Shown here: piece after piece, positions 29,681 through 56,374 of the stretch
Numbering within the stretch: position 1 is the stretch's first letter
Layout of the letters: the number at the start of each line of letters is the position of its first letter
Assembly: GCA_017935245.1 (NCBI GenBank)
Contig: JAGBHZ010000003.1
Location: forward strand, 6,956 to 70,955
Direction: 5' to 3'
Origin: Alphaproteobacteria bacterium
GTDB taxonomy: Bacteria > Pseudomonadota > Alphaproteobacteria > Rs-D84
Length of the DNA: 64,000 nucleotides
Translations under genes and position numbers: made by a program
The notes under the pieces: generated by a model
What the model was told of the DNA's origin: nothing
Seen by the model: only the letters and a program-made list of their open reading frames with translations
Database searches by the model: none

Positions 29681-30883
29681 ATGAAATTTGTAAAATATAT
29701 TGATGATGTGTATGAAAAGCACCTGGGGGATGAATTAAAAAAGTTAACGCGTCGCGATGCGCATATTGATGTGGTTGAAAATGCAACAATTGTTGTTAAT
29801 ACAAAAACGCACGCGTATGGTATTTTTGATGAAAATAAAAAAGTTGTAAAGTCGGGCCTGCAATATCGTGGTAAAAATCATCAGTTTATACCATCGTTTG
29901 TGTCGGGGGATGAATATATTGATTGTGATGTAATGTTCTTGGGAAATGCATATCCGCATTTTGGACATTTCTTGATGGAACATTTGAACCGGGCATGGGG
30001 TGTCGTGCGGGCTGGGAAACCCGGCATGAAATATGTTTTTATTGATAATACAGGTGTGGGGGCGAAATCGTGGCTGTTTGATTTTACAAAGATGTTGGGA
30101 ATAAAAAAATCTGACGTGATTATTTTGAATAAAACGATTCGTTTTAAGCGTGTGTTTGTTCCATGGCAAACAATGAATATATCTGGGAATTGGTATGCGC
30201 CAGAATTTATTTTGCCGTTTGGGGCAATGCGTGATAATGTGCCGGTGGAAAATGTTTATGAACGGGTGTATGTGTCGCGGGCAAAACTGCCGGGGCGTTT
30301 GCGTGTCTATAACGAAGAAAAAATTCAAAAGATTTTTGAAAAAAATGGTTTTCATGTTATCTATCCGGAAACATTGTCATTGGCGCAACAGGCGGCAATT
30401 GTCGGAAATGCAAAGGTGTTGGCGGGATGTGCCGGCAGTGCACTGCATTTATCAGTATTTATGCGGCCGGGTGGGCGTGTTATACAGTTGCGCAGAACAT
30501 ATGATGTTTGGGACAGTGGCGCGGTTCAATATCGTCTGTGCATGATAGGGGATTTAGATTTTGATGTTATTAACGCATCAATAGAAGAGGTGCGTTCCAC
30601 CCATGGTGGTGATCATGCGCCGCAAATTATTGGTGTAACGCAATATCTGAAAAAATTCTTGGACAAAAATAAATTTAAATATTCACAGGATGACCAAGAT
30701 GTTGATGATGCCGTGATGGCGGAATACAGAAAAGATGTTTGTGATTTTAATGCAACCCATGGCGGCAGTACGAAATTAAAAATCAAAAAGAAGATTGTTA
30801 AAATTACAGCATGCTTTATACCGGGGCGCATATGGCGTGGTCGATATCGTACATATATGAACAAGCACTTTGTTAATAAATAA
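29681..30883 (+). CDS. DUF563/GT61-family glycosyltransferase
   Basis: GHFLMEHLNRAWG and YVSRAKLPGRLRVYNEEKIQKIFEKNGFHVIYPETLSLAQQAAIVGNAKVLAGCAGSALH. Confidence 0.6.
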   Translation: MKFVKYIDDVYEKHLGDELKKLTRRDAHIDVVENATIVVNTKTHAYGIFDENKKVVKSGLQYRGKNHQFIPSFVSGDEYIDCDVMFLGNAYPHFGHFLMEHLNRAWGVVRAGKPGMKYVFIDNTGVGAKSWLFDFTKMLGIKKSDVIILNKTIRFKRVFVPWQTMNISGNWYAPEFILPFGAMRDNVPVENVYERVYVSRAKLPGRLRVYNEEKIQKIFEKNGFHVIYPETLSLAQQAAIVGNAKVLAGCAGSALHLSVFMRPGGRVIQLRRTYDVWDSGAVQYRLCMIGDLDFDVINASIEEVRSTHGGDHAPQIIGVTQYLKKFLDKNKFKYSQDDQDVDDAVMAEYRKDVCDFNATHGGSTKLKIKKKIVKITACFIPGRIWRGRYRTYMNKHFVNK

Positions 30884-30910
30884 AAAATCCCCCGGATGGG
30901 GGATTTTTTT
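30882..30910 (+). terminator. Intrinsic terminator (copy 1 of an identical 27-nt repeat)
   Basis: AAAAAATCCCCCGGATGGGGGATTTTTTT immediately after the TAA stop. Confidence 0.75.
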
Positions 30911-31162
30911 ATCAAAGTTCAAAGTGCAATTGTGGAACACACTAATACCCCGCTAAAAAAAACATGCCGAAATTAAAGGTTAAAATATATGTAATTTCAA
31001 TGAATTAATTCAAAAAAATACCGTCGAATTAAAACGGTCCTTTTTTTTTCTTACCTTGCTGTCCCTTATTTTATCTTAAAAACCGCCCCGCGTCAATGTG
31101 ATTTTGTGTCGAAAAAAAAGGACCGTTTTCCTAAGGTAGCGGCTTCAGACAGGAGTAGAAAA

Positions 31163-31609
31163 ATGAAAAAACTTTTAACCTTAACCGCAGTTGTTGCGAT
31201 GCTGGCCGCACCCGCAACGGCCGTCCAAAAATGCGTGGCATTAACCCCAGAAAACCTTTCGTGTTCTATCGATGAAAGTTTTGTAGACGTGGGTATGGAA
31301 TCAGATTGGCGGGTTAACTGTACCAACAACGGAAAGACGATTGTTGTCCATGGTGTAACTATGTGTAGTAATGGTTGGCTAGGTGAAAATCGTGTGACAA
31401 ATGGTCAACTCTACGTATCCCCTGGAACAGGATGCTTTTGCCGTATAATTTCACCCGCGGTATCCAAGTGGGTCTCTGCATTCAAATTTTCAGTAACAGA
31501 TTCAGAAATGGAGGATGCATGGCGCTGCACAGACAGTTGTGCGTATCAATGTGCGTATGAGTTTGTAAACGACCAAACTTTTAGACAGGCCATGCTTTCT
31601 AGCTTGTGA
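31163..31609 (+). CDS. Secreted Cys-rich protein, type A (A1)
   Basis: AGGAG SD 8 nt upstream. Signal peptide MKKLLTLTAVVAMLAAPATA|VQKCVAL. 9 Cys in the mature part. Paralogous to 38822..39259 (shared AVQKCVAL, CxC, PAVS.WV, SC.Y.CA.YF). Confidence 0.65.
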   Translation: MKKLLTLTAVVAMLAAPATAVQKCVALTPENLSCSIDESFVDVGMESDWRVNCTNNGKTIVVHGVTMCSNGWLGENRVTNGQLYVSPGTGCFCRIISPAVSKWVSAFKFSVTDSEMEDAWRCTDSCAYQCAYEFVNDQTFRQAMLSSL

Positions 31610-31648: not shown

Positions 31649-31921
31649 ATGAAAAAACTCAATTTTATCTTTTATATACTTATGTGTCCAGCATTTGCAA
31701 CCACACCCAGCACCATTTGCCCATCGGGATATATCGCGATTGATGAAGAATATTTAACAATTGCGACATCTTGCCCGTCGGGTACGGTATCTGTTGGTAC
31801 GGCGGAATCGTGCCTGGTATCCAGCCCATCGGGGGATTGTATAATGTATGCGCCGGCGGGGGTATCGTATACCGATGACAGTGGCACATACGAATTTACA
31901 GACGCGTGTCCAATGTCGTAA
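31649..31921 (+). CDS. Secreted Cys-rich protein, type B (B1)
   Basis: Signal peptide; CPSGYIAID...ATSCPSGTVSVGTAESCLVS...CIMYAP..SYTDDSGTYEFTDACPMS. About 70 percent identical to 39266..39544. Confidence 0.7.
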   Translation: MKKLNFIFYILMCPAFATTPSTICPSGYIAIDEEYLTIATSCPSGTVSVGTAESCLVSSPSGDCIMYAPAGVSYTDDSGTYEFTDACPMS

Positions 31922-31948
31922 AAAATCCCCCGGATGGGGGATTTTATT
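31920..31948. terminator. Bidirectional intrinsic terminator (copy 2 of the 27-nt repeat)
   Basis: AAAAAATCCCCCGGATGGGGGATTTT. Overlaps the B1 stop (31919-21) and the typA stop (31944-46). Confidence 0.75.
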
Positions 31949-37026: not shown

Positions 37027-38433
37027 ATGAAACATATTTTATATGTGTTGTTTTTGTCATGTTTTGTTTCGGGCGCATTTGCAGATGGTACAGATACAAA
37101 TGCAAAATGCCGTGGTTTTAGTTTTGATTACAAATCAGGCCAGGTTGGTTCGGTTGCCTGTGATGGTATGGTGGGAATTGATGCGACAAATACTGCATCA
37201 TGTTCATGTACGTGTAACTCGGGAAACTGGGAAAAATGTACGGTATCATCATGCAAACCGGGGTATAATTTTAATGCAAATTATACGGGCTGTGTCCCCA
37301 GTTACAGTGGCGCCGTGGTTGATAAAAGTGGGACGCCATTGGCATTTGTTACAATTTTATCCAGTCAAGATCGTACAAATTCTTCGTATTTTTATGAAAC
37401 AGATGTTAATGGAAAATTTACAATTCCAACCGATCAATTCCCAGATGATGGTATGGCACTGTTTTCGATAGTTGGGTGCAAGGACAAGACATTGAAATTA
37501 ACATCCGGGATGCGTGTGGTGTTGGATTGTAGTAATGAACTGGATGGGGCAACATTGGTTGAGTGTGGGGCGGATACACTAAAAAAATTAAAGGCCAGTG
37601 CCGCAAAATTTAATCCAGAAACAGATAAGTGCGAAGCGACAACATGTATTGCCGGTGCATATTTTGTGTACAGTAAAGATAATGCGTTCATGGGATATTG
37701 CGAAGATAACTCTTATTGTGGGGCGGGTAAGAAGTTGGTAACAGACGGGTATAAGACATCGCTGGAATGTGTGCCAGATGTTAAATTGCCGGTCTTGGAT
37801 GAAGATATCGAAATAATTGATGAAGAAGTCGAAATAGATGATGATTTGTTCCGTGATTTAAAGGAAGATGATTTTGTGGTAAATAAATTGCCACTTATTC
37901 CGGTTTTGGATGATGATATAGAAATAATCGATGAAGAAGTCGAAATAGATGATGATTTGTTCAAGAATCTGGAAGATTCAAAACTGGATATAAAAATTAT
38001 GAATCCAGATCAGCCAAAAATTGATGCATGTAATAAAAAATATGGTGCACGCTGGAATTCTGTAACACGTACATGTGAATGCATAGACAGGCAAAATACA
38101 GATTGGAATTCTGATAAAACGGCGTGTGTAGAAACCCAAGATGCAAAAATACGCCGTCGTGAATCGGCGATTACAGGTGCGGTTTCAACATTGGATGTAG
38201 CGTTGTCTGATTTAGCCGTCAGCAAATGGAAAACCGCGGATGGTAAATTTAATACGGCGCGTTTGGCATCGGATACGATTGCGGGTGTTGTATTGGGTAC
38301 GGCGGGTGGATTAATAACCAGTCATGTTGTAAAAAAGCACCAGGTAGAAGAAGGTTTTGAAGATATAAAGTGTGTGATTGGTGGCCAAAGCGTTGCCGGA
38401 TGGGGCGATGAATTTAATGTTGGTGTTCATTAA
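37027..38433 (+). CDS. Secreted, C-terminally anchored Cys-rich protein with acidic tandem repeat
   Basis: Signal peptide ...VSGAFA|DG. Cys-rich N-region, CarboxypepD_reg-like GAVVDKSGTPLAFVTILS...TDVNGKFTIP. Two copies of P(V/I)LD(E/D)DIEIIDEEVEIDDDLF. C-terminal TM IAGVVLGTAGGLITSHVV. Confidence 0.6.
   Translation: MKHILYVLFLSCFVSGAFADGTDTNAKCRGFSFDYKSGQVGSVACDGMVGIDATNTASCSCTCNSGNWEKCTVSSCKPGYNFNANYTGCVPSYSGAVVDKSGTPLAFVTILSSQDRTNSSYFYETDVNGKFTIPTDQFPDDGMALFSIVGCKDKTLKLTSGMRVVLDCSNELDGATLVECGADTLKKLKASAAKFNPETDKCEATTCIAGAYFVYSKDNAFMGYCEDNSYCGAGKKLVTDGYKTSLECVPDVKLPVLDEDIEIIDEEVEIDDDLFRDLKEDDFVVNKLPLIPVLDDDIEIIDEEVEIDDDLFKNLEDSKLDIKIMNPDQPKIDACNKKYGARWNSVTRTCECIDRQNTDWNSDKTACVETQDAKIRRRESAITGAVSTLDVALSDLAVSKWKTADGKFNTARLASDTIAGVVLGTAGGLITSHVVKKHQVEEGFEDIKCVIGGQSVAGWGDEFNVGVH
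37789..37962 (+). repeat. 111-nt-period tandem duplication inside the 468-aa gene
   Basis: CCGGTCTTGGATGAAGATATCGAAATAATTGATGAAGAAGTCGAAATAGATGATGATTTGTTC (37789-37851) versus a near-identical copy at 37900-37962. Confidence 0.85.
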
Positions 38434-38461
38434 AAAATTCCCCGCAGTTGCGGGGATTTTT
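38434..38461 (+). terminator. Intrinsic terminator
   Basis: AAAAATTCCCCGCAGTTGCGGGGATTTTT. Near-identical hairpin to the one at 55129. Confidence 0.75.
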
Positions 38462-38521
38462 ATCAATGTGCAATTAATGATTAATATTAATACTGCGATA
38501 AACTTTTATTTATCAAAGCAT

Positions 38522-38550
38522 TTGCCTAATCTAAAATATTCAGTTATAAT
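38522..38550 (+). promoter_or_regulatory. Sigma70-like promoter of cassette 2
   Basis: TTGCCT (38522-27), 17 nt spacer, TATAAT (38545-50). Confidence 0.55.
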
Positions 38551-38556
38551 ATGTGT

Positions 38557-38796
38557 GTTATGGTGTTTTGCCATAATGGGGTGTAGTAACCCGATATAAG
38601 GCGTCTGGATGAAAATAACGAAATATCCTGAATTTCGGGCGCGCCATGTGGCGTGTTTTTTCGTATAGGGTCCAAGCGATAAAAAAACTCCTGATGTATT
38701 ACGTGTCAGGAGGGTTGCGAATATATTGAATAAGCACACAATTCCTTATAATTGTTACTAACCTCCTGACCACTCGAATTTATTCGGTGGTTTTTT
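38557..38796 (+). promoter_or_regulatory. Structured 5' leader / attenuator RNA (copy 1 of a conserved leader)
   Basis: P1 TTATGG-7nt-CCATAA (38558-76). CTCCTGA (38688-94) / TCAGGAGGGTT (38706-16) / AACCTCCTGA (38760-69) alternative pairings. Terminator CCACTCGAA-TTTA-TTCGGTGG plus T6 (38770-96), 25 nt before the ATG. Confidence 0.55.
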
Positions 38797-38821
38797 AATA
38801 ATACAAAATAGGGGGAAAACA

Positions 38822-39259
38822 ATGAAAAAAATTTTAACAATAACAGCGTTGTGTGGGATTTTTGCGGTACCCGCGGGCGCAGTTCAAAAATGCGTGGCGT
38901 TGAACGACGGACCAGATACAGATATGAATTGGTGTTACAATGGTGGAACTAATTTTGGTGATGTTGATTGGAGTAATGCGTGTGATGTATTCACCGGTGC
39001 AACTATAGGTGTATCTGGTGTTTCGGCCTGTTCTGATCGACCCGGTGGTGAACCAATTGGGGCCTTAACTGTATCAGATAATGCGACAGATAACATATAT
39101 TGTTGGTGTATGATGACTGTACCTGCGGTATCGTGGTGGGTGTTTGCTGGTGAGAATACTACAAACTGCCTACACAGTTGCGGGTACACCTGTGCGGAAT
39201 ATTTTGCGGATACGGATTCAGGATTACGATCTGTGATATTGTCAAACCTGGTTAATTAA
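38822..39259 (+). CDS. Secreted Cys-rich protein, type A (A2)
   Basis: GGGGGA SD. Signal peptide ...AVPAGA|VQKCVAL. 9 Cys in the mature part. Paralogue of A1. Confidence 0.65.
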   Translation: MKKILTITALCGIFAVPAGAVQKCVALNDGPDTDMNWCYNGGTNFGDVDWSNACDVFTGATIGVSGVSACSDRPGGEPIGALTVSDNATDNIYCWCMMTVPAVSWWVFAGENTTNCLHSCGYTCAEYFADTDSGLRSVILSNLVN

Positions 39260-39265
39260 AGGGTA

Positions 39266-39544
39266 ATGCGAATGAAACGAATTATATTTTTTCTTATGTG
39301 TGTGCCGATTTTGGCGCACGCCGCCGCACCAAGTGTCAGTTGTCCATCGGGTTATATCGCAATTGACATGCCGGATATAATAATTGCAACATCATGCCCC
39401 AGTGGCTATGTTTCCGTTGGTACGGCGGAATCGTGCCTGGTATCCAATCCCGCGGGAACATGCATAATGTATGCGCCGGTGGGGATGTCATATACAGACG
39501 ATACTGGTACATACGAATTTACAGATGCGTGCCCAATGTCATAG
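39266..39544 (+). CDS. Secreted Cys-rich protein, type B (B2)
   Basis: Signal peptide; SCPSGYIAID...ATSCPSGYVSVGTAESCLVSNPAGTCIMYAPVGMSYTDDTGTYEFTDACPMS. Starts 6 nt after A2. Confidence 0.7.
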   Translation: MRMKRIIFFLMCVPILAHAAAPSVSCPSGYIAIDMPDIIIATSCPSGYVSVGTAESCLVSNPAGTCIMYAPVGMSYTDDTGTYEFTDACPMS

Positions 39545-39545
39545 T

Positions 39546-39580
39546 AAAAATCCCCCAGTTTTTTTGCTGGGGGTGTTTTT
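39546..39580. terminator. Bidirectional intrinsic terminator
   Basis: AAAAATCCCCCAG-TTTTTTTG-CTGGGGGTGTTTTT between convergent B2 and the J-domain gene. Confidence 0.7.
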
Positions 39581-40082
39581 ACTTTTTTCCAAAATGTTTC
39601 TTTAATATTTCGTATGCGGCGGATATGCGCGCAAATTCGGTCGCGGCATTTTTCTTGTCATCTGCGGTGTCGGGGTGGTATTTTTTCGCCAATGCACGGT
39701 ATTTTACACCGACATCACGCCATGTGGCAGATATGCCCAAATCAAATACTTTTAATGATGATACAACATTGGTTGGTAATTTACTTTTTGCAGGAATGCG
39801 GTCAAACTTGGAACGGCCCGTTATAAAATCATTGATGAAGTTTGCGTAATTGTCGGCGTCGGTGTTGGCGCTGGCTTTGTCCTTTAATGGGGCGCCAAAT
39901 GTTTCGCGTTCCCAATCTGCTTCGATTTCGTCGGGTGTCATGTCGGCGTAATAATTCCAATTCTTGTTATATTCGGCGGCATGTTCGGTGCAAAAAAACC
40001 AGTATTCGCGTAAATCGCGTGATTTTGGGGCACGGCATGTGCCGGCCTTGGTGCAACCGGGTTTATCGCATTTTTTTATCAT
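39579..40082 (-). CDS. J-domain (DnaJ-like) protein
   Basis: C-terminal J domain with YRALAKKYHPD (HPD motif) and FARISAAYEILKK. N-terminal Cys cluster CDKPGCTKAGTCRAP..FFCTEH. ATG 40082 avoids overlap with xerD. Confidence 0.75.
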   Translation of the reverse strand: MIKKCDKPGCTKAGTCRAPKSRDLREYWFFCTEHAAEYNKNWNYYADMTPDEIEADWERETFGAPLKDKASANTDADNYANFINDFITGRSKFDRIPAKSKLPTNVVSSLKVFDLGISATWRDVGVKYRALAKKYHPDTADDKKNAATEFARISAAYEILKKHFGKK

Positions 40083-49707: not shown

Positions 49708-49906
49708 GTTATGGTGGTTTTGCCATAATGGGGTGTCATAGCCCGTGATTTCGGCGCCATGTATTAATTATGTGGTGATAAATATTCGTTCTCCAATCGT
49801 TTGGTTGGAGGGTTGTGAATAATACGTGTTTATCACGTAAAATAAGCACACTATACCGAATTATAGCTATGAACCTCCAACCGCTTGAATTTCTAAGCGG
49901 TTTTTT
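49708..49906 (+). promoter_or_regulatory. Structured 5' leader / attenuator RNA (copy 2 of the conserved leader)
   Basis: P1 TTATGG-8nt-CCATAA (49709-28), GGGGTGT..CCCG, CGCCATGT. CTCCAA (49791-96) / TTGGAGGGTT (49805-14) / AACCTCCAA (49872-80). Terminator AACCGCTT-GAATTTCT-AAGCGGTT plus T6 (49879-906). Confidence 0.55.
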
Positions 49907-49935
49907 CATTCGTGAAAATCAAAGGAGGTCAAAGA

Positions 49936-50547
49936 ATGAATAAATTTAAAATCTTTATAATTTCTGGAATACTGTATGGGGCTGCTTTTGGCGATTCTTG
50001 GGCAGAAGTGCGACCAATAAATTTGACTATAGAGGGCAGTGCTTATAGATGTTACGTAAATAGTGATGGGGACATTTTTTGTAATCAAAATGAAGATAGT
50101 CCGGCAATGATGGGAACACAGGTTTGCAGTAAGTATATAGAATATGAATATGTTGACTGTGACCCAACTGTTGAAAATTGTAAAATAATTTCTTTAGAAG
50201 GACGTACATACTGTATTGGAATAGGGGATTGTACCCCTGGGAATAGCACGTGTTACAATGGAACGCGTCCATTTAAGCTATGCAGTGAATGGTCTTTTAC
50301 CTGTGAAGAGATAGTAGATGGCCCAATGGAAAATATAGATTATGTAAATGACACTTTTACCTGTATTCAGGGGTATTATAGGGATAAGATGGAATGTAAG
50401 CTTTGTCCGTCGTCGGGTGAGGTGTATGGAACGACAAAATCCAGTGGCGCAACCAGTATTACAGAATGCTATATCCCATCTGGTACAGAATTTTCAGATT
50501 CTTCTGGAACGTGGGAATATGGCCAGAACTGTTATTACAGTGAATAA
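49936..50547 (+). CDS. Secreted Cys-rich protein with ephrin-receptor/TNFR-like (GCC2/GCC3-type) Cys spacing
   Basis: AGGAGG SD. Signal peptide MNKFKIFIISGILYGAAFG. C-terminal CIQGYYRDKMECKLCPSSGEVYGTTKSSGATSITECYIPSG. Confidence 0.55.
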   Translation: MNKFKIFIISGILYGAAFGDSWAEVRPINLTIEGSAYRCYVNSDGDIFCNQNEDSPAMMGTQVCSKYIEYEYVDCDPTVENCKIISLEGRTYCIGIGDCTPGNSTCYNGTRPFKLCSEWSFTCEEIVDGPMENIDYVNDTFTCIQGYYRDKMECKLCPSSGEVYGTTKSSGATSITECYIPSGTEFSDSSGTWEYGQNCYYSE

Positions 50548-50756
50548 AACAGGGCGATAAATTTATCGCCCTGTTTTTTACAAATTTTGTGATAATATGC
50601 GCATTATGAAAAAGTAATCAAAGATTTTGTCCGACTGTATGTCGGGGGCGTTAATATGCTTGGCTGACAGGTGTTTTTATGAAAATATCCATAAATACAT
50701 TTATCTTTGTTTTTTGGGGATGTTTATGCTATACTTTTTTCAAAAGGAGTATATTT

Positions 50757-52001
50757 ATGACAAAGAAATTATCTTGTTTTGCGTTGCTGGGCGCGATGTT
50801 GGCTGTAAATCCGGCCGTGGCGGCAACAAACTGGGGCGTGCGTGCGGGATCCAGTGCCGATTTAACCGGGGCGCCCGCCACACGTACACGTGAAAATGTG
50901 AACTATCAAAAGTATCAGACGCGTACCACAACGCGTACGTACAAGGCATCAGATGGTGGGGATTTATACTATGCCACACCGACCAAGCGCAGCGATTTGT
51001 ACAAGCAATATGATGCTGCGACATCATCTTCTGCACGTGCAACAAAGAACACAGTTCGTACCAGTCGCGCTGAAAAAATTATTACAAAGTTGAACCGTAA
51101 ATATTATCTGGCGCATCCGTTCTTTCAACCATTGGCGGGTAATTTTGGTTCAATAACGGATTTTTCGTATAACCAGAATTCTTTTGATTTTGATATGCCA
51201 TTGACGTTGGTAAGTACGTTGGATCCGGCAATTCAGATGTCGTTTGCAGGTGGAAAATGGGAATCTGAAACATTTTCAATCAAAGAAGATTTTAGTTATG
51301 GTATTACCGATCGTGTCGCATTGGTTGCAATGGCCAAGTATGACATGGCAGACTATAAATTCAAATATGATTTTAGTAATGGGGATGCCGCAGAATCAAA
51401 AATGGATGACAGCAGTGTAAATGTTTTTGGTATTGGTGCACAGTGGCGCATGGTTGATAATGAAAAATGGATTGCAACCGCGTCGGCGTATTATCAGCAT
51501 CAAAAGGATTTTTCAAATAATCTGGTTCTGGATTTAAAGGCCGGGTACAAGGTTGCACGTTCAACAATCTATGGTTTGGCGCGCGGATGGTACTTGGATT
51601 TTGATGAAAATTCATATGGTGCGGTTGTCGATAATTCCGAAGAAGTGTTCTATGTTGCATATGATTCAGATGTTGACAGTGCGTTCTATTTCGAAGGCGG
51701 AGTTGGTGTGTTCAGTGTGCTAAGCGAAGACTGGACATTAAATGTCGAAGGTATCTTTGGCGCATATGATTGGCATAACCAGGCATCGGTAAAAGCGGCC
51801 CTGGGGTGGCAGCCAAATGATTGGTTTGCATTGAATTTGTATGCAAAATCATCAATCTATGACAGTGCCGATAACAAAGATTTAAATGTATATTTGCAAC
51901 AGGCAAATATGGGATTGGATTCTTTGACCCAGATTGGTACAGCAAAGGTTGATAATGCAAATGAAATGTCCCTGGGGGTTCAGGCGATATTCCATTTCTA
52001 A
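50757..52001 (+). CDS. Outer-membrane beta-barrel protein with Arg/Thr-rich N-terminal extension
   Basis: Signal peptide ...NPAVA|AT. TRTRENVNYQKYQTRTTTRTYK region, alternating barrel strands, C-terminal LGVQAIFHF. The barrel is paralogous to the next gene (FSYGITDRVAL versus LSYGLNDRLTV). Confidence 0.6.
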   Translation: MTKKLSCFALLGAMLAVNPAVAATNWGVRAGSSADLTGAPATRTRENVNYQKYQTRTTTRTYKASDGGDLYYATPTKRSDLYKQYDAATSSSARATKNTVRTSRAEKIITKLNRKYYLAHPFFQPLAGNFGSITDFSYNQNSFDFDMPLTLVSTLDPAIQMSFAGGKWESETFSIKEDFSYGITDRVALVAMAKYDMADYKFKYDFSNGDAAESKMDDSSVNVFGIGAQWRMVDNEKWIATASAYYQHQKDFSNNLVLDLKAGYKVARSTIYGLARGWYLDFDENSYGAVVDNSEEVFYVAYDSDVDSAFYFEGGVGVFSVLSEDWTLNVEGIFGAYDWHNQASVKAALGWQPNDWFALNLYAKSSIYDSADNKDLNVYLQQANMGLDSLTQIGTAKVDNANEMSLGVQAIFHF

Positions 52002-52072: not shown

Positions 52073-52774
52073 ATGTGGAAATTTTTATCAGTCGTTTTAT
52101 TTGGGGCAACATTGGCGTGTTCGGCAAATGCAAATGTGGTGGAATTCGATACGTCGGATCCATTATATATGCTGAAAACAGAAGATATTTTGTCAGAATC
52201 AACCGTTTCATATGGGCGTGATGTTCTGCGTTTTGGTGAAACGTTGTCATATGGTTTGAACGACAGGTTGACAGTGTCGGCAAATGTTAATTATCAAATA
52301 GATTTTGTTGATACAAACGATGGTTTTACCAGTACGGATTTAGGCTTTGTATATCGTGCGGGGGCATCGGATACATTTATATCAGACGTCTTGGCGGGAT
52401 TTAAATTTGGGGGCAGTCGCCAGGTTCGTACCCCATGGTATGCCGATTCAACATATTATGTTGGGTGGCGTTTCGGTCGTCAATGGGCCGGGGTAACATT
52501 GGCCGGAACAATTCAGTCAAACTGGATTTTTGATGATGCACGCGGTATGGCGTATATCGACTTTGTGCCCGAGGCTTATTTTAGATTTGACCCAGAGTGG
52601 CGTTTGGGACTAAACGCAACCCTGCGCAAGGCAACAACACCATCGTTTAACGAAGAGTGGATTGGGGCAAAACTGGTGCGTCAATTTGGTCGTACGCAAT
52701 ATATTGGGCATATTGACTATGAATTTGAACATGATGATGTGCATATTGGTGCGCGTGTAAATGTCTTGTTTTAA
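52073..52774 (+). CDS. Small outer-membrane beta-barrel protein
   Basis: Signal peptide ...CSANA|NV. 233 aa with alternating amphipathic strands. C-terminal IGARVNVLF. Confidence 0.6.
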   Translation: MWKFLSVVLFGATLACSANANVVEFDTSDPLYMLKTEDILSESTVSYGRDVLRFGETLSYGLNDRLTVSANVNYQIDFVDTNDGFTSTDLGFVYRAGASDTFISDVLAGFKFGGSRQVRTPWYADSTYYVGWRFGRQWAGVTLAGTIQSNWIFDDARGMAYIDFVPEAYFRFDPEWRLGLNATLRKATTPSFNEEWIGAKLVRQFGRTQYIGHIDYEFEHDDVHIGARVNVLF

Positions 52775-52980
52775 ATAATGTTGTATGTGTATTAATGTGG
52801 TTTAGTGGTGAATTATATACATTGTACATGATGTAGTTTGTGCATAAATGTGGTTGTATTGTGTGTGTTATTTGTGCTTTACAACACTGCATTAAAAATA
52901 CTATAATTTATAACAAAGGAAGTACTTTATACACGCATATGCGTAGAAATCTGGACTGTTTTAGTCGCGGGGGGATACAT

Positions 52981-55128
52981 ATGAAACGTCGTAATTTTTT
53001 AGTTTGTTGTAAAAATGCAGTCGGCACGATATTTTTACTGGGGGGGGCATTTTTAACATGTTCGACATTAATGTCGATGCGTTCTGCATTTGCAGACCCA
53101 ATTGCGCCGGTAAATTCTGGCACGTTATCGCCAATGGCAACACGTGCGGGAAATGCTGTTCGTTCCGGCCGGGCCAGTCCACGTAACACATCTGCCAAAA
53201 CAACGGTGTCCCGTGGCACGTCATCGGCGGTGCAATCGCGTGGTGTTGCGGCACGTACAACCACGCGTCCGACAACCGCGTCGGTAACAACTGGGGCGCC
53301 ATCACGTGCGGTTGCAAATCGTAACGTTGTGTCGCGTACGGCAACAACGGCGGCAACCCGCACAACGGCAAATCGTTCGGGGCGCACGGTTCGTGCGCGT
53401 AATGCGGACACGTCGCGTGTATCTTTGCAGGGGGCTGCAATTCGCGGGTCCAAGGCATCAACATCAAATTACACATATTTAACCAATAAATTATACACGG
53501 GTAATTATTCAAACATTATTGATTCCAGTACCGGTTTAATTTCGGCCGAAGCGTTCAATAACTGTATGGAATCATATTACACATGTATGGACGAAATTTG
53601 TACCGCACGTAACGCGGCCCAGCGTCGCTGTGCATGCGCCGGCCGTGTCAAAGCATTTGCAGAGGCCGAAGCCCAACTGGAAACCGCAAACGAAGAATTG
53701 ATAAAGGTGTCGGGCGAATTGGCATTGCTAATCGCGAACAAGGGCAAGGATGTATCCGATGCGTTTAAATTAACCGACGCTGAAAAGGTTATGAACTGTG
53801 TTTCATGGCGCGAAGCCAGCAATAATGGCACAATTGATGCCAAAGATTTTGGTAACTGGTGTGCGGAACATGGAATCTTTGACGGTTCGTGCAGTGAAAA
53901 AAGCGCCCCGGCATATTGTTCAACAACGGGCAATGGCGGCAATACATTTGGATTTGATATTTCTGAATTGGATGGGTCGGGTTCGGACATTCTGGCGTCG
54001 TTAAAGGCATGGGCCGCGGCCAAGGATGAAACAATCACAATCCTAAAAGATGATACAGAAAATCTGATGACGGGCCTGGGGATAATCAGCAGTACGGTTA
54101 ACAGTATGGCCGGTATCAGTGGGGCAATCGCAAATTCAGATGATTTAAAAGATTCCCTGGCGGAAACATGGGGTTATGAATTGTTTGAATATGCGCACAA
54201 CAATGTATGTTCACGCGTTTTGGATTCATGCTTTAACGGTATTTACGAGGCATGTGGTACACCAGGTGAAAATGCCAATAAGTGTGGTAATGGCGCAACC
54301 CAGTGTCCATATAATTACAACAGTAAGATTTCAGTAGATACATCAAGTGGTGAATATAATCTAAAATTCATAACGGCCAATACTGATTACACGGCATCTA
54401 ATTCTGCAAGATGCTTTGGTTATACATCTGCATCGGGTGATCCGTATGCGTCATTGCGTGGTCCGGTTGCCGATGCCCGCCGCAGCATTATGCAAAAATA
54501 TGCATTGGATGCAAATGCGGATTGTGATGCATATGGCGAACAATTGCGCACCACCGCCCAAAATATTGGGTATCAAAAGGTTGCCGCCCAACAGGCCCTG
54601 CAACAAAAGCGTCTGGAATTTGCAACCGAAGAACGCGAATCAATTCTGGCATCGGCCCAGACGGCGTCTGCAAACTTTAACGAATGTTTAAGTGAGATAT
54701 ATGAATGCTATGTCGAAACCGAACAAAGTGAAAAGAATTGGACATCTTCACGTATTAAAACATACTGTGCCCAGATTGCCAATATACCGCATTGTTACGA
54801 AGAAATGATTTGTACACCATCGGGCGCACAATTCAGTGCGGTTATCGACGAAGAAGACGCAACCGACTGTGCCAATACCCAAGATTACACAACAAATACA
54901 TGTCGTAACGTTGTAACATTAAATGAAATCTTGAACGGGGCATATACCGGTTCTATGGCGGGCTTTACCCCCCAATGGGGCGCCGGCGCAACCCAGGATT
55001 CAACCCAGTTGCGTGAATATTGTCTGCGCAATGCAATGGGAATACCATTGGATGGTGATGTAAAAGGCAAGGGCGAAGATACATGGAATATCCGCAGTTG
55101 GAAAAAGGATACAGGTTCCGAAGATTAA
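52981..55128 (+). CDS. Large secreted protein: Arg/Ser/Thr-rich low-complexity region plus Cys-rich helical C-region
   Basis: GGGGGG SD then ATG 52981. Signal/anchor AVGTIFLLGGAFLTCSTLMSMRSAFA. About 110 aa of R/T/S/A repeats. More than 30 Cys, including CMESYYTCMDEICTARNAAQRRCACAGR. Confidence 0.6.
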   Translation: MKRRNFLVCCKNAVGTIFLLGGAFLTCSTLMSMRSAFADPIAPVNSGTLSPMATRAGNAVRSGRASPRNTSAKTTVSRGTSSAVQSRGVAARTTTRPTTASVTTGAPSRAVANRNVVSRTATTAATRTTANRSGRTVRARNADTSRVSLQGAAIRGSKASTSNYTYLTNKLYTGNYSNIIDSSTGLISAEAFNNCMESYYTCMDEICTARNAAQRRCACAGRVKAFAEAEAQLETANEELIKVSGELALLIANKGKDVSDAFKLTDAEKVMNCVSWREASNNGTIDAKDFGNWCAEHGIFDGSCSEKSAPAYCSTTGNGGNTFGFDISELDGSGSDILASLKAWAAAKDETITILKDDTENLMTGLGIISSTVNSMAGISGAIANSDDLKDSLAETWGYELFEYAHNNVCSRVLDSCFNGIYEACGTPGENANKCGNGATQCPYNYNSKISVDTSSGEYNLKFITANTDYTASNSARCFGYTSASGDPYASLRGPVADARRSIMQKYALDANADCDAYGEQLRTTAQNIGYQKVAAQQALQQKRLEFATEERESILASAQTASANFNECLSEIYECYVETEQSEKNWTSSRIKTYCAQIANIPHCYEEMICTPSGAQFSAVIDEEDATDCANTQDYTTNTCRNVVTLNEILNGAYTGSMAGFTPQWGAGATQDSTQLREYCLRNAMGIPLDGDVKGKGEDTWNIRSWKKDTGSED

Positions 55129-55157
55129 AAAATCCCCGCAGTTGCGGGGATTTTTTT
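55129..55157 (+). terminator. Intrinsic terminator
   Basis: AAAAATCCCCGCAGTTGCGGGGATTTTTTT. Same hairpin as at 38434. Confidence 0.75.
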
Positions 55158-55213
55158 AAATTTCAAAGTGCAATTAATAATTAATATTAATGCTGCGATA
55201 TATAATAAGTATC

Positions 55214-55242
55214 TTGTATTTTGGTGAAAAATGGTTTATAAT
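55214..55242 (+). promoter_or_regulatory. Sigma70-like promoter of cassette 3
   Basis: TTGTAT (55214-19), 17 nt spacer, TATAAT (55237-42). TTATAATATGTGT is shared with the cassette 2 promoter. Confidence 0.5.
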
Positions 55243-55248
55243 ATGTGT

Positions 55249-55527
55249 TGAGTTCACAGGGATGTGGATTCGGGGTCGTCAAAAAGCCCATCAGCAATCG
55301 GTGCAAGAAAATTTGTACCGTATCCGCACATGAAAATTGGCGCGGAATGCGTCTTTTTTTGTGTTTATAACCCGATGTATTCGTGCGATGGTCGCACGGA
55401 CCACTTTCGTACGTCGGGGTGCCGTCGGTTATACAACAGGGCGCATTGCGCCCGAAAACCGGCGGGGTCAAAATTGCTGTTGATTTTTTGAACACCCCGA
55501 CCGCCATATTCCCGTGGCGGTGTTTTT
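55249..55527 (+). promoter_or_regulatory. Structured 5' leader with internal and terminal terminator hairpins
   Basis: GGCGC-GGAAT-GCGTC plus T7 (55339-60). GTCGGGGTG (55413-21) is complementary to CACCCCGAC (55493-501), which abuts the terminator ACCGCCA-TATTCCCG-TGGCGGT plus T5 (55500-27). Confidence 0.45.
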
Positions 55528-55541
55528 ATTGCGTGGGGGAA

Positions 55542-55970
55542 ATGATGCGGAAGATTTTATTGCTGTTTATGCTAATTACTGTATCGGCAAATGCGGCAAC
55601 AATGTGCGTGCCGGATTTTTCACAGATGTCTGATAAATGCACAGTTGTTAGTTATACAAAAAATACGTGGACAGTGAACTGTAATGGGGTTGAGGTTTCT
55701 GGAATAGCAATCCCAGGACAAAAAACATCTGCGGGTTTTGCTTATGATATAGAAGAGATTGTTTACTTTACGGCGTACTGCAATTGTTTAATGCAGCATC
55801 CGGTTGTGGGACAGTATTTATTGCCATTACCTGAACCCAATGTGTGTAGTGAGTGGGCCGGAATGTCTTGTGGTCAGTTTTGTGCACATGTTTTTGTGCC
55901 AAGATGTGGGTTTTCTAAGTGTAATCCGTATGCTGACCTGGGGATAAGTTGCACACAAGGATCGGGGTAA
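55542..55970 (+). CDS. Secreted Cys-rich protein, divergent type A (A3)
   Basis: Signal peptide MMRKILLLFMLITVSANA. Shares W.VNC, V.G, YCNC and C..FCA..F spacing with A1/A2. Confidence 0.55.
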   Translation: MMRKILLLFMLITVSANAATMCVPDFSQMSDKCTVVSYTKNTWTVNCNGVEVSGIAIPGQKTSAGFAYDIEEIVYFTAYCNCLMQHPVVGQYLLPLPEPNVCSEWAGMSCGQFCAHVFVPRCGFSKCNPYADLGISCTQGSG

Positions 55971-55975
55971 AATTC

Positions 55976-56374
55976 ATGAAAAAAATATTTATTGTTTATG
56001 CCGGTATTATGCCTGTGATTGCGAATGCTGTGGCGTGTCCAAGTGGTATGATGGCGGTGTCGTATGATGATTTTGCCCCAGTGGTATTTGGGGTATGCCC
56101 CGCGGGCTATGTTGCACATGATTTGCAGAATGTTTGTGCAAATGATTCATCGGGGGTGTGTTGGCTGGTGCGATTGGCGTGCGGGGCGGGGATAACACAA
56201 ATGAAAACATCGGCTGGGGTTGATTTTCCGATTTATGCAACGCGGCAAACAAATCCGTCGCTAAGTGTTAGGTATAATAATACAACATGTTATATGGATT
56301 TAGAGCAAGGCAAACAATCCGGTACAATTAATCTAAATTATAACGGTGTTGTTTATCATATGATTCCGAACTAG
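55976..56374 (+). CDS. Secreted Cys-rich protein, divergent type B (B3)
   Basis: Signal peptide. ACPSGMMAVSYDD and VCPAGYVAHD echo the CPSGY repeats of B1/B2, with an extra about 60-aa C-terminal tail. Confidence 0.55.
   Translation: MKKIFIVYAGIMPVIANAVACPSGMMAVSYDDFAPVVFGVCPAGYVAHDLQNVCANDSSGVCWLVRLACGAGITQMKTSAGVDFPIYATRQTNPSLSVRYNNTTCYMDLEQGKQSGTINLNYNGVVYHMIPN

Follow-up and report, generated by a model that had tools for sequence, protein, structure and literature searches.

Paired genes for cysteine-rich exported proteins and their structured RNA leader form an expanded multigene family in Rs-D84 Alphaproteobacteria

The window analysed here is a stretch of 64,000 nucleotides (nt) from an Alphaproteobacteria bacterium of the GTDB lineage Rs-D84 (NCBI GenBank assembly GCA_017935245.1, contig JAGBHZ010000003.1, positions 6,956 to 70,955 of the forward strand), and it contains three copies of a two-gene module, in which a gene for a cysteine-rich protein with a signal peptide, designated A, is followed by a gene for a second such protein, designated B. 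The A-B pair is a multigene family in Candidatus Enterousia, expanded in genomes of less than 1 Mb, and in module 2 and in most other copies it is preceded by a leader that is a structured RNA with strong covariation. The genes of the three modules, with their lengths in amino acids (aa) and the cysteines of the mature proteins, and the terminator-like hairpins found after two of them are as follows.

31163-31609, + strand: A1, 148 aa, nine mature cysteines; from the list of open reading frames (ORFs), paralogue of A2
31649-31921, + strand: B1, 90 aa, five mature cysteines; paralogue of B2
31926-31940, + strand: terminator-like hairpin after B1, stem-loop TCCCCCGGATGGGGG, the same as at 30888-30902 upstream of module 1
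38822-39259, + strand: A2, 145 aa, signal peptide 1-20, nine mature cysteines; variable subunit
39266-39544, + strand: B2, 92 aa, signal peptide about 1-19, five mature cysteines; conserved subunit
39552-39573, + strand: terminator-like hairpin closing module 2, bidirectional, from the hairpin search
55542-55970, + strand: A3, 142 aa, 11 mature cysteines; distant member of the A family, 26 bits against the A hidden Markov model (HMM)
55976-56374, + strand: B3, 132 aa, six mature cysteines; 23 bits against positions 1-66 of the B HMM

An earlier note on this DNA had placed six ORFs of two paralogous families on the + strand, and all six are present in the ORF list at those positions, with A and B separated by 39 nt in module 1, 6 nt in module 2 and 5 nt in module 3; gene callers start B2 at M3, giving 90 aa. 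By BLAST, A1 and A2 are 39% identical (E 6e-21) and B1 and B2 68.5% identical (E 3e-45), in keeping with the paralogy and the identity of about 70 percent between the B proteins that the note had claimed. The description of A3 and B3 as divergent relatives also holds. By BLAST the A2/A3 match is weak and B2/B3 identity (33%) is confined to the N-terminal 67 aa, and the scores of both proteins against the family HMMs (26 and 23 bits) mark module 3 as a genuine but divergent relative, in which B3 combines a B-like N-terminal two-thirds carrying two CP.G motifs with a C-terminal half unrelated to B. Signal peptides with a K/R n-region, a hydrophobic core and an A-x-A site, as proposed earlier, can be read by eye in all six proteins, and the mature cysteine counts (9/5, 9/5 and 11/6) agree with those claimed. 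Inspection of the sequences revealed no lipobox L-x-[GA]-C in the A and B signal peptides, which end in A-x-A, and no β-barrel signals. That A and B might be distant paralogues of each other was rejected, as hhalign aligns only the start of their signal peptides. No terminator-like hairpin was detected 3' of B3. Module 1 is flanked by two copies of one bidirectional terminator AAAAAATCCCCCGGATGGGGGATTTT, at 30882-30909 and 31921-31945; these could mark the edges of an inserted or duplicated unit, or could simply represent a common terminator type in this genome.

Searches for known relatives agree with the earlier note, in which neither protein could be placed in a known family. No Pfam-A 2025 or NCBIfam r20 family was matched at its cutoff by the six window proteins, nor by 79 B and 74 A members of the families. 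The best Pfam match of B was cEGF (16.8 bits against a cutoff of 26.6), and sub-threshold matches of B to cEGF (30 of 79 members), CC (21) and Furin-like (11) are driven by the short SCPSGY motif; the best matches of A were to spurious viral families (E > 0.002). B gave no match to Ephrin_rec_like and carries five conserved cysteines rather than the canonical six of EGF, which places it outside both the EGF-like and the Ephrin_rec_like families. When A and B profiles were compared with PDB sequences by hmmsearch, only the signal peptide matched. The AlphaFold model of A2, made up of five strands and two C-terminal helices, has a predicted local distance difference test (pLDDT) score of 88.4 and a predicted template modelling (TM) score of 0.82. 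It is confident apart from the first 14-20 residues, modelled as coil with pLDDT of 61-76 though they hold the most conserved motif, VQKCVAL. Foldseek searches with this model found no structural neighbour (best PDB E 0.73 with a TM score of 0.27, best BFVD E 0.34), so that the predicted fold of A is apparently new. In the papers searched on Rs-D84, including those on cysteine-rich proteins, no description of an A-B family was found.

Evidence that A and B act together comes from their arrangement in other genomes. A heuristic, itself crude, applied to 79 fetched loci recovered an A-like ORF of 136-173 aa that has a signal peptide and ends -1 to 23 nt upstream of B for 58 of 68 B genes. Of the ten failures, some were contig ends or misses of the heuristic; in three A was a pseudogene or truncated, three had an additional small ORF between the two genes, and one was a true exception. 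Once these had been inspected A was found to lie next to B in essentially all evaluable loci, over about 15 metagenome-assembled genomes (MAGs). Fourteen more A-B pairs were found behind copies of the leader, and other assemblies of the window's own strain have the same A-B order. Genes adjoining the modules encode GT61, TypA, SerRS, a TrxB-like protein, a DnaJ-domain protein, XerD, PAP2, RarA and LptF/G; these are unrelated housekeeping neighbours, and hence each module is an isolated unit. In three loci (L028, L029 and L072) an ORF of about 100 aa (...LDEILNREIIVTD(Y/F)RITKSKKRDGTDCL(Q/R)LQF...IVKIDRYYSFS) lies between A and B, and the C-terminus of A is altered.

Natural fusions of the two proteins occur in both orders, A-B in P0239, P0302 and P0344 and B-A in P0327, P0354 and P0286, each matching both family HMMs. 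Their second moiety lacks a signal peptide and starts exactly where the mature protein is predicted to begin, as in ...CPLDP|VTKC..., and fusion clusters with 8 and 12 members derive from many independent contigs, including genomes that also hold split modules. The pair is thus fused in some genomes and adjacent in others, the Rosetta-stone pattern of an obligate heterodimer. These fusions came from an exhaustive profile search; long database matches initially taken for fusions were rejected as over-extended ORF calls. Conserved adjacency, fusions in both orders without an internal signal peptide and an odd cysteine parity described below uphold the A-B partnership proposed in the earlier note and, at the level of sequence, support formation of an A-B heterodimer. 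Matches to characterised families, a lack of conserved adjacency or a lack of secretion signals, each named in that note as speaking against its proposal, were all looked for and none was encountered.

The family is narrow in its distribution and numerous where it occurs. A search with B2 returned at least 200 relatives, all from MAGs of uncultured Alphaproteobacteria and all either lacking a functional name or called hypothetical, and a scan of species-representative genomes placed B relatives in Candidatus Enterousia and in bacteria closely related to it, from the guts of sheep, deer, chickens and humans. The narrowness of B follows from an exhaustive profile search, which retrieved only 170 B clusters among 1.84 billion cluster representatives. 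A is far more divergent, since A2 as a single query retrieved four relatives; a profile built from 46 locus-derived A sequences retrieved 106, none with a functional name. At least 15 module loci are present in the MAG SIG48, at least 12 in RGIG5353 and at least 4-9 in each of six other multi-locus MAGs, counts that are lower bounds as 80 of 114 matches were kept. Enterousia belongs to the order Rs-D84; its genomes of 0.75-1.0 Mb lack respiration, a tricarboxylic acid cycle and pathways to make amino acids, nucleotides or fatty acids, and its members, fermentative anaerobes, are read as obligate symbionts or parasites (PMC12306168). By our estimate the A-B family takes up about 1-2% of an Enterousia genome.

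Within a module the two proteins evolve very differently. Over 58 modules A proteins have a median pairwise identity of 42% and B proteins one of 67%, and B is more conserved than its partner A in 99% of 1653 module pairs; in the alignment, conserved N- and C-termini of A surround a hypervariable centre. When the window was compared with the orthologous locus L001 of a sister genome, the ratio of nonsynonymous to synonymous substitution rates (dN/dS) was 0.83 for A2, 0.22 for B2 and 0.02-0.13 for five flanking genes, and dS was 0.07-0.14 in the module and 0.5-1.4 in the flanks. Nucleotide identity with L001 is 93-97% over 38880-39780, which covers A2-B2 as well as the 3' portion of the DnaJ-domain gene, is about 78% beyond 40100 and falls to 67% within the signal-peptide codons of A2. 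This single pairwise comparison suggests that module 2 may lie in a mosaic tract that was recently exchanged or converted, with a breakpoint inside A. A diversifies fast and B stays constant, and A would supply the variable specificity.

The odd number of mature cysteines extends well beyond the window, to 169 of 185 A proteins (nine cysteines in 140 and seven in 26), and 309 of 332 B proteins carry the full canonical set of five. Joint losses of cysteines point to internal pairs. In A, C38 and C54 are lost together in 40 sequences, loss of C70 goes with that of C116 or C124 and loss of C96 with that of C124, and C94 and C120 are never lost; C24 has no co-loss partner, yet 184 of 185 sequences keep it. 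Among B proteins, C57 and C66 go missing together, and C44 is the cysteine most often lost alone (13 times). From these patterns, internal disulfides would be C38-C54, C70-C116, C94-C120 and C96-C124 in A, where it is tentative which of the three helix cysteines each of C70, C94 and C96 pairs with, and C26-C89 and C57-C66 in B. The leftover cysteines, A-C24 in the invariant N-terminal strand VQKC and B-C44, would most likely form the inter-subunit bond, so that the heterodimer is possibly joined by a C24-C44 disulfide.

Upstream of A2 lies a long leader, whose conserved sequence in front of A genes was noticed through the over-extended ORF calls in databases. Its elements, with the core recognised by the covariance model (CM) R1 and with the Shine-Dalgarno sequence (SD) of A2, are as follows.

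38522-38550, + strand: σ70-type promoter of module 2, TTGCCT-N17-TATAAT, 10/12 consensus matches
38557-38577, + strand: hairpin H0, about 6 nt past the -10 element; 8 of 9 pairs with compensatory double changes in 44 sequences
38578-38592, + strand: conserved element GGGGUGUAGUAACCC (H1), GGG/CCC invariant
38637-38664, + strand: variable spacer, here a terminator-like hairpin with a T-run; 18-95 nt among leaders
38672-38814, + strand: leader core, about 140 nt, CM R1 match of 131 bits
38688-38694, + strand: box X1, in the leader core of A2
38705-38713, + strand: box X2, in the leader core of A2; X1:X2 forms helix P1
about 38716-38736, + strand: hairpin P2 with the invariant loop AAUAUAUUGAAUAA, from covariation and RNAalifold
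about 38738-38755, + strand: hairpin P3, from covariation and RNAalifold
38762-38770, + strand: box X3, overlapping the terminator base by 1-3 nt
38768-38792, + strand: terminator-like hairpin P4 with a U-run to 38796, from covariation and RNAalifold
38811-38815, + strand: GGGGG SD of A2, from the sequence

With transcription of A2 inferred to start at about 38556-38558, the 5' untranslated region (UTR) is about 265 nt long, and leader length overall is 200-265 nt, with five co-varying helices. In 67 of 70 leaders from other genomes TTGCnn-N17-TATAAT occurs at a fixed distance from H0. That P1-P4 fold as RNA is evident from covariation: 97.6% of cells in the consensus are paired, and 77 cells show double changes, compared to 22±3.4 in shuffled alignments (reached in 0 of 500) and 3-9 with slid partners. 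Moreover, in all 73 distinct leaders X2 has two alternative pairing partners, X1 (median 8 bp) and X3 (9-11 bp), X3 being complementary in a type-specific manner to the true SD and its flanks. Three co-varying box types, GUCAGGAGG/CCUCCUGAC, GGUUGGAGG/CCUCCAACC and GGUUGGAGU/ACUCCAACC, are found, with different types within one genome. In single-sequence folding the A2 leader has z = -4.3 and the leader at 49776-49924 has z = -6.0, with the SD paired to X1 or X3. Hence, the 5' UTR combines structure with covariation and mutually exclusive pairings that involve a terminator or the SD, as in structured leaders. With Rfam 15 the whole window yields only two tRNAs at gathering score, and a permissive scan of 38560-38860 gave SAM-III as the best match (15.8 bits against a gathering score of 45).

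Coexisting box types and freely compensating P2/P3 stems argue for pairing of RNA rather than a DNA operator or an invertible element, and a reading of the X boxes as an invertible promoter or DNA operator was rejected on these grounds and on the short length of the X2-X3 segment (about 48 nt). A promoter inside the conserved P2 loop region was rejected as well, as its putative -35 element co-varies as a helix arm and a near-consensus promoter lies upstream of H0. Judged from the pairings, the leader would act as an attenuator combined with a translational toggle. Transcription from the strong σ70 promoter would run through a structured leader containing an intrinsic terminator and four mutually complementary boxes, namely the anti-SD-like X1 and X3, the SD-like X2 and the true SD. 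Pairing of X1:X2 together with X3:SD on the one hand and of X2:X3 on the other would represent mutually exclusive states, of which X2:X3 would also remove 1-3 bp from the terminator base, and some trigger would gate read-through and/or translation.

A private promoter, a long leader and a terminator had been claimed for the modules in the earlier note. This is borne out for A2 (promoter at 38522-38550, leader of about 265 nt, terminator at 39552-39573), takes a divergent form at A3 and does not apply to A1. The leader of module 3 escapes detection by CM R1 and is described by the following elements.

55214-55541, + strand: divergent promoter and leader of module 3, with TTGTAT-N17-TATAAT at 55214-55242; fold z = -6.5

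It comprises an H0-like hairpin, GGGGUCGUCAAAAAGCCC and boxes GUCGGGGUG (55413-55421) and CACCCCGAC (55493-55501), followed by a terminator-like hairpin at 55500-55521 and a GGGGG SD, that is, an A2-type logic with different boxes. Upstream of A1, instead of a canonical leader, there is a perfect 18-nt inverted repeat, AAAACGGTCCTTTTTTTT / AAAAAAAAGGACCGTTTT, at 31031-31048 / 31112-31129. Its arms are 63 nt apart, no other locus has it, and the fold of this upstream region is not significant (z = -0.5). A terminator with an AT-rich palindromic stretch (GTGCAATTAAT.ATTAATATTAAT.CTGCGATA) is nearly identical at 38432-38502 and 55125-55204, where it sits just upstream of the A2 and A3 promoters and 3' of two large cysteine-rich genes. 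As a general feature of the modules this box was rejected, being restricted to loci of this strain and absent from the 79 loci of other genomes.

The leader is not confined to A genes. The covariance model detected 84 copies in the window and the 79 loci, almost every one of them immediately ahead of A or of another cysteine-rich exported protein and nearly all strong matches lying directly upstream of A genes, and a second canonical leader in the window precedes a different exported protein.

49776-49924, + strand: second canonical leader, box type GGUUGGAGG/CCUCCAACC; CM R1 72.6 bits, E 1.6e-17; X3 paired with the SD
49936-50547, + strand: 203-aa exported protein with 15 cysteines behind the second leader; C-terminus like the C-terminal half of B

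This 203-aa protein scores 15 bits over positions 40-88 of the B HMM and 20.7 bits against Ephrin_rec_like (cutoff 23.1). Further leader copies precede a 266-aa cysteine-rich protein (L007, 19 cysteines), a 133+72-aa cysteine-rich pair (L062) and small HTH_3/XRE regulators, at 6218-6357 of L039 (82.9 bits) and at 1229-1363 of L040 (- strand, 46.1 bits). The occurrence of the same leader ahead of A genes, other cysteine-rich exported proteins and XRE regulators defines a regulon, and these regulators are candidates for members or controllers of it. The leader motif marks the whole regulon, and its model can be used to find the remaining members in metagenomes.

Some B proteins carry additional domains. 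A colipase-like N-terminal domain (44.9 bits to Pfam Colipase, whose cutoff is 27) is present in long B variants that follow A in L038, L044, L046, L053 and L058, and in P0256, P0097 and P0108. In P0355 two Ephrin_rec_like repeats (56.5 bits) are joined to a B domain, and one member of the P0355 cluster is encoded on a contig of the sister genome JAZQCG01. Ephrin_rec_like and colipase-like domains are disulfide-bonded extracellular modules typical of animals. Fusion of B to such domains favours disulfides over metal binding and suggests an extracellular role.

Other genes for exported proteins adjoin the modules. Directly upstream of module 2, at 37027-38433 (+), a 468-aa exported protein with 21 mature cysteines is encoded. 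One segment of it weakly resembles CarboxypepD_reg, an internal acidic direct repeat P(V)LD(E/D)DIEIIDEEVEIDDDLF is present twice, and a hydrophobic segment lies at the C-terminus. This gene is absent at L001 and at L081, the latter having the identical A2 allele, and present in L080, so that its presence is strain-variable. Directly upstream of module 3, an exported cysteine-rich protein of up to 762 aa with a long Ser/Thr/Arg/Ala-rich N-terminal region is encoded at 52840-55128 (+), for which no Pfam or NCBIfam match was obtained. Between this gene and the leader-driven gene of the 203-aa protein lie genes for two exported proteins, at 50679-52001 and 52073-52774 (+), which have no Pfam match; their C-termini alternate aromatic and hydrophilic residues and end in F, suggestive of outer-membrane β-barrels. 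An odd number of mature cysteines recurs in the 203-aa (15), 468-aa (21) and L007 266-aa (19) proteins and in the L062 pair (11+5); in these few proteins, with cleavage sites set by eye, it hints at a wider network of intermolecular disulfides.

Taken together, each module would be a self-contained operon for a two-subunit, Sec-exported, disulfide-stabilised complex specific to Rs-D84. Mature A, of about 125 aa, would consist of a sheet of five strands that lies against two C-terminal helices and is held by four internal disulfides, mature B, of about 70 aa, would present two CPSGY hairpin motifs, and the N-terminal strand of A with C24 would contact B. The A-B complexes would serve as a set of extracellular or surface ligands for interaction with host or partner cells. 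We consider it somewhat better than an even bet that this explanation is right as a whole, including the Rs-D84 operon, the disulfide-stabilised complex, the leader switch and the ligand role. The gene anatomy, the expansion of the family, the adjacency and fusions of A and B, the parity and joint loss of cysteines, the unequal rates of A and B, the lack of known relatives and the covariation of the leader are observed, whereas we infer the disulfide map, the C24-C44 bond, the logic of the switch, localisation beyond the periplasm and the host or partner role.

Several points weigh against this explanation. A2 and B2 were modelled as single chains only, and B2 alone reaches a pLDDT of 52, which may only reflect its shallow alignment (60-85% identity). 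For three of the six fusions the total of cysteines is odd. Thirteen B proteins lack B-C44, as does the fusion P0327 although it keeps A-C24, and the A protein of L061 lacks C24 while its B has five cysteines; in view of such odd-cysteine fusions and natural variants, a disulfide between A and B, if real, is not obligatory. The window contains no gene for a Dsb-type oxidase, a search of it for Dsb-like CxxC proteins having found only the cytoplasmic TrxB, although a sample of 64 kb is uninformative on this matter, and the organism is a fermentative anaerobe (PMC12306168). As to the leader, in either configuration of the boxes one anti-SD-like box could still mask the SD, and A1 lacks a canonical leader by both CM R1 scan and fold check.

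Four other explanations were considered, all of them less well supported than a ligand set built from A-B heterodimers. A, B and other exported proteins with odd cysteines could be cross-linked by disulfides into an envelope or surface layer like the cysteine-rich outer-membrane complex of chlamydiae. Odd mature cysteines in the 203-aa, 468-aa and L007 266-aa proteins and the L062 pair, which share the leader regulon, and the large investment for a genome of less than 1 Mb fit such a lattice, but 10-15 fast-diverging A paralogues with dN/dS of about 0.8 are not expected of a structural lattice, the existence of 1:1 fusions in either order speaks for a defined heterodimer, and neither a lipobox nor β-barrel signals are seen in the sequences, which makes the lattice unlikely. 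In an antagonism module, A would be secreted as a polymorphic toxin or as an effector of the bacteriocin kind, with B as its carrier, chaperone or protective partner. The pairing of a variable with a conserved protein, the many divergent copies, the small secreted disulfide-rich products and a surrounding tract that is mosaic or was recently exchanged all fit this view. However, both A and B carry Sec signal peptides and can be fused to each other, and B (67%) is conserved and does not co-diversify with A (42%) in the way of immunity proteins. No toxin domain or catalytic motif was recognised in Pfam or NCBIfam, PADLOC and toxin-specific libraries not having been searched. By these features the pair falls outside toxin-immunity and bacteriocin systems, and we regard this explanation as quite improbable.

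The nutritional poverty of the organism invites another explanation, in which A-B proteins bind partner metabolites in the periplasm or at the surface and paralogues differ in their ligand, thereby offsetting missing transporters. Standard transporters for sugars, amino acids and peptides are missing from Rs-D84 genomes, as is most biosynthesis (PMC12306168), and many paralogues with variable loops on a constant scaffold would suit scavenging. Nevertheless, no transporter gene adjoins the three window modules or the sampled loci, where neighbours are housekeeping genes, the A model resembles no solute-binding fold in Foldseek searches and a near-neutral dN/dS is unusual for metabolite-binding proteins; scavenging therefore appears just as improbable as antagonism. 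Finally, the conserved cysteines could be ligands of Zn, Fe-S or Cu or redox thiols, with A and B co-expressed and not covalently joined, for which the CxC and C-x3-C-x3-C motifs in A, the anaerobic fermentative lifestyle and the lack of a Dsb gene in the window can be cited. Pairwise loss of cysteines (C38 with C54 in 40 A sequences, C57 with C66 in B) is typical of disulfides, however, B is fused to obligately disulfide-bonded extracellular domains (Ephrin_rec_like and colipase-like), and all the proteins have signal peptides, so that we give metal or redox chemistry very little credence.

A bolder version of the ligand reading is doubtful but conceivable: A-B proteins would be interchangeable, disulfide-locked 'warheads' for docking to host or partner cells, made of modules that were either taken over from animal extracellular domains of the EGF-like, ephrin-receptor-like and colipase/Dickkopf-like kinds or came to resemble them by convergence, and the leader would be a new class of riboregulator that answers a signal or an RNA-binding factor and either coordinates 10-15 modules or makes them mutually exclusive. 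If this were true, riboregulated choice of modules would amount to antigenic or specificity variation at the level of RNA. Rs-D84/Enterousia are widespread, uncultured gut bacteria that make no amino acids, nucleotides or lipids of their own (PMC12306168). Given its share of about 1-2% of the genome, its lack of relatives of known function and an evolution faster than that of its surroundings, the A-B family is the most obvious candidate for the interaction interface.

Two protein families, one of them with an apparently new fold, and one RNA motif lack detectable relatives, and the theme of the system, an expanded and variable exported family in a host-dependent bacterium with a reduced genome, has precedents. 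Chlamydial OmcA and OmcB are encoded by adjacent genes for a small and a larger cysteine-rich exported protein in obligately host-dependent bacteria, and intermolecular disulfides have been proposed or are known for them. A and B are likewise encoded by adjacent genes for cysteine-rich exported partners. Unlike OmcA and OmcB, they have no Pfam match at cutoff (including Chlamydia OMP3/OMP6) and no lipobox, which sets them apart by homology and as non-lipoproteins; they are of 145 and 90 aa as compared to about 9 and 60 kDa, and they occur as 10-15 diverging copies with a new predicted A fold instead of one operon. Anaplasma Msp2/P44, Ehrlichia OMP-1 and Mycoplasma Vlp/Vsa are, like A-B, lineage-specific multigene families in small genomes, and the likeness extends to the hypervariable centre of A with conserved ends, raised dN/dS and signs of recombination. 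The difference is that A-B copies are full-length two-subunit units, each with promoter, leader and terminator, with no pseudogene-cassette expression site and no β-barrel or lipoprotein anchor, and that as far as visible they are under control of an RNA leader and not of DNA rearrangement; with only occasional pseudogenes among them, these modules do not conform to antigenic variation of the msp2/vls cassette type.

B resembles EGF-like and ephrin-receptor-like (GCC2_GCC3) and colipase/Dickkopf domains by its twice-repeated SCPSGY...C motif and by its fusions to true domains of these kinds, and it differs in always scoring below the gathering score, in having five cysteines instead of six or eight and in the lack of a confident model. 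For the RNA, the closest parallels are trp-type 1:2/2:3/3:4 leaders, the SAM-III/SMK box and RNA thermometers, with which the A-B leader shares a long 5' UTR, mutually exclusive helices, a terminator and an anti-SD box. In contrast to these, it has no leader peptide or Rfam family, its set of two anti-SD-like and two SD-like boxes is unusual, and one leader type serves about 10-15 operons per genome, all for one class of proteins.

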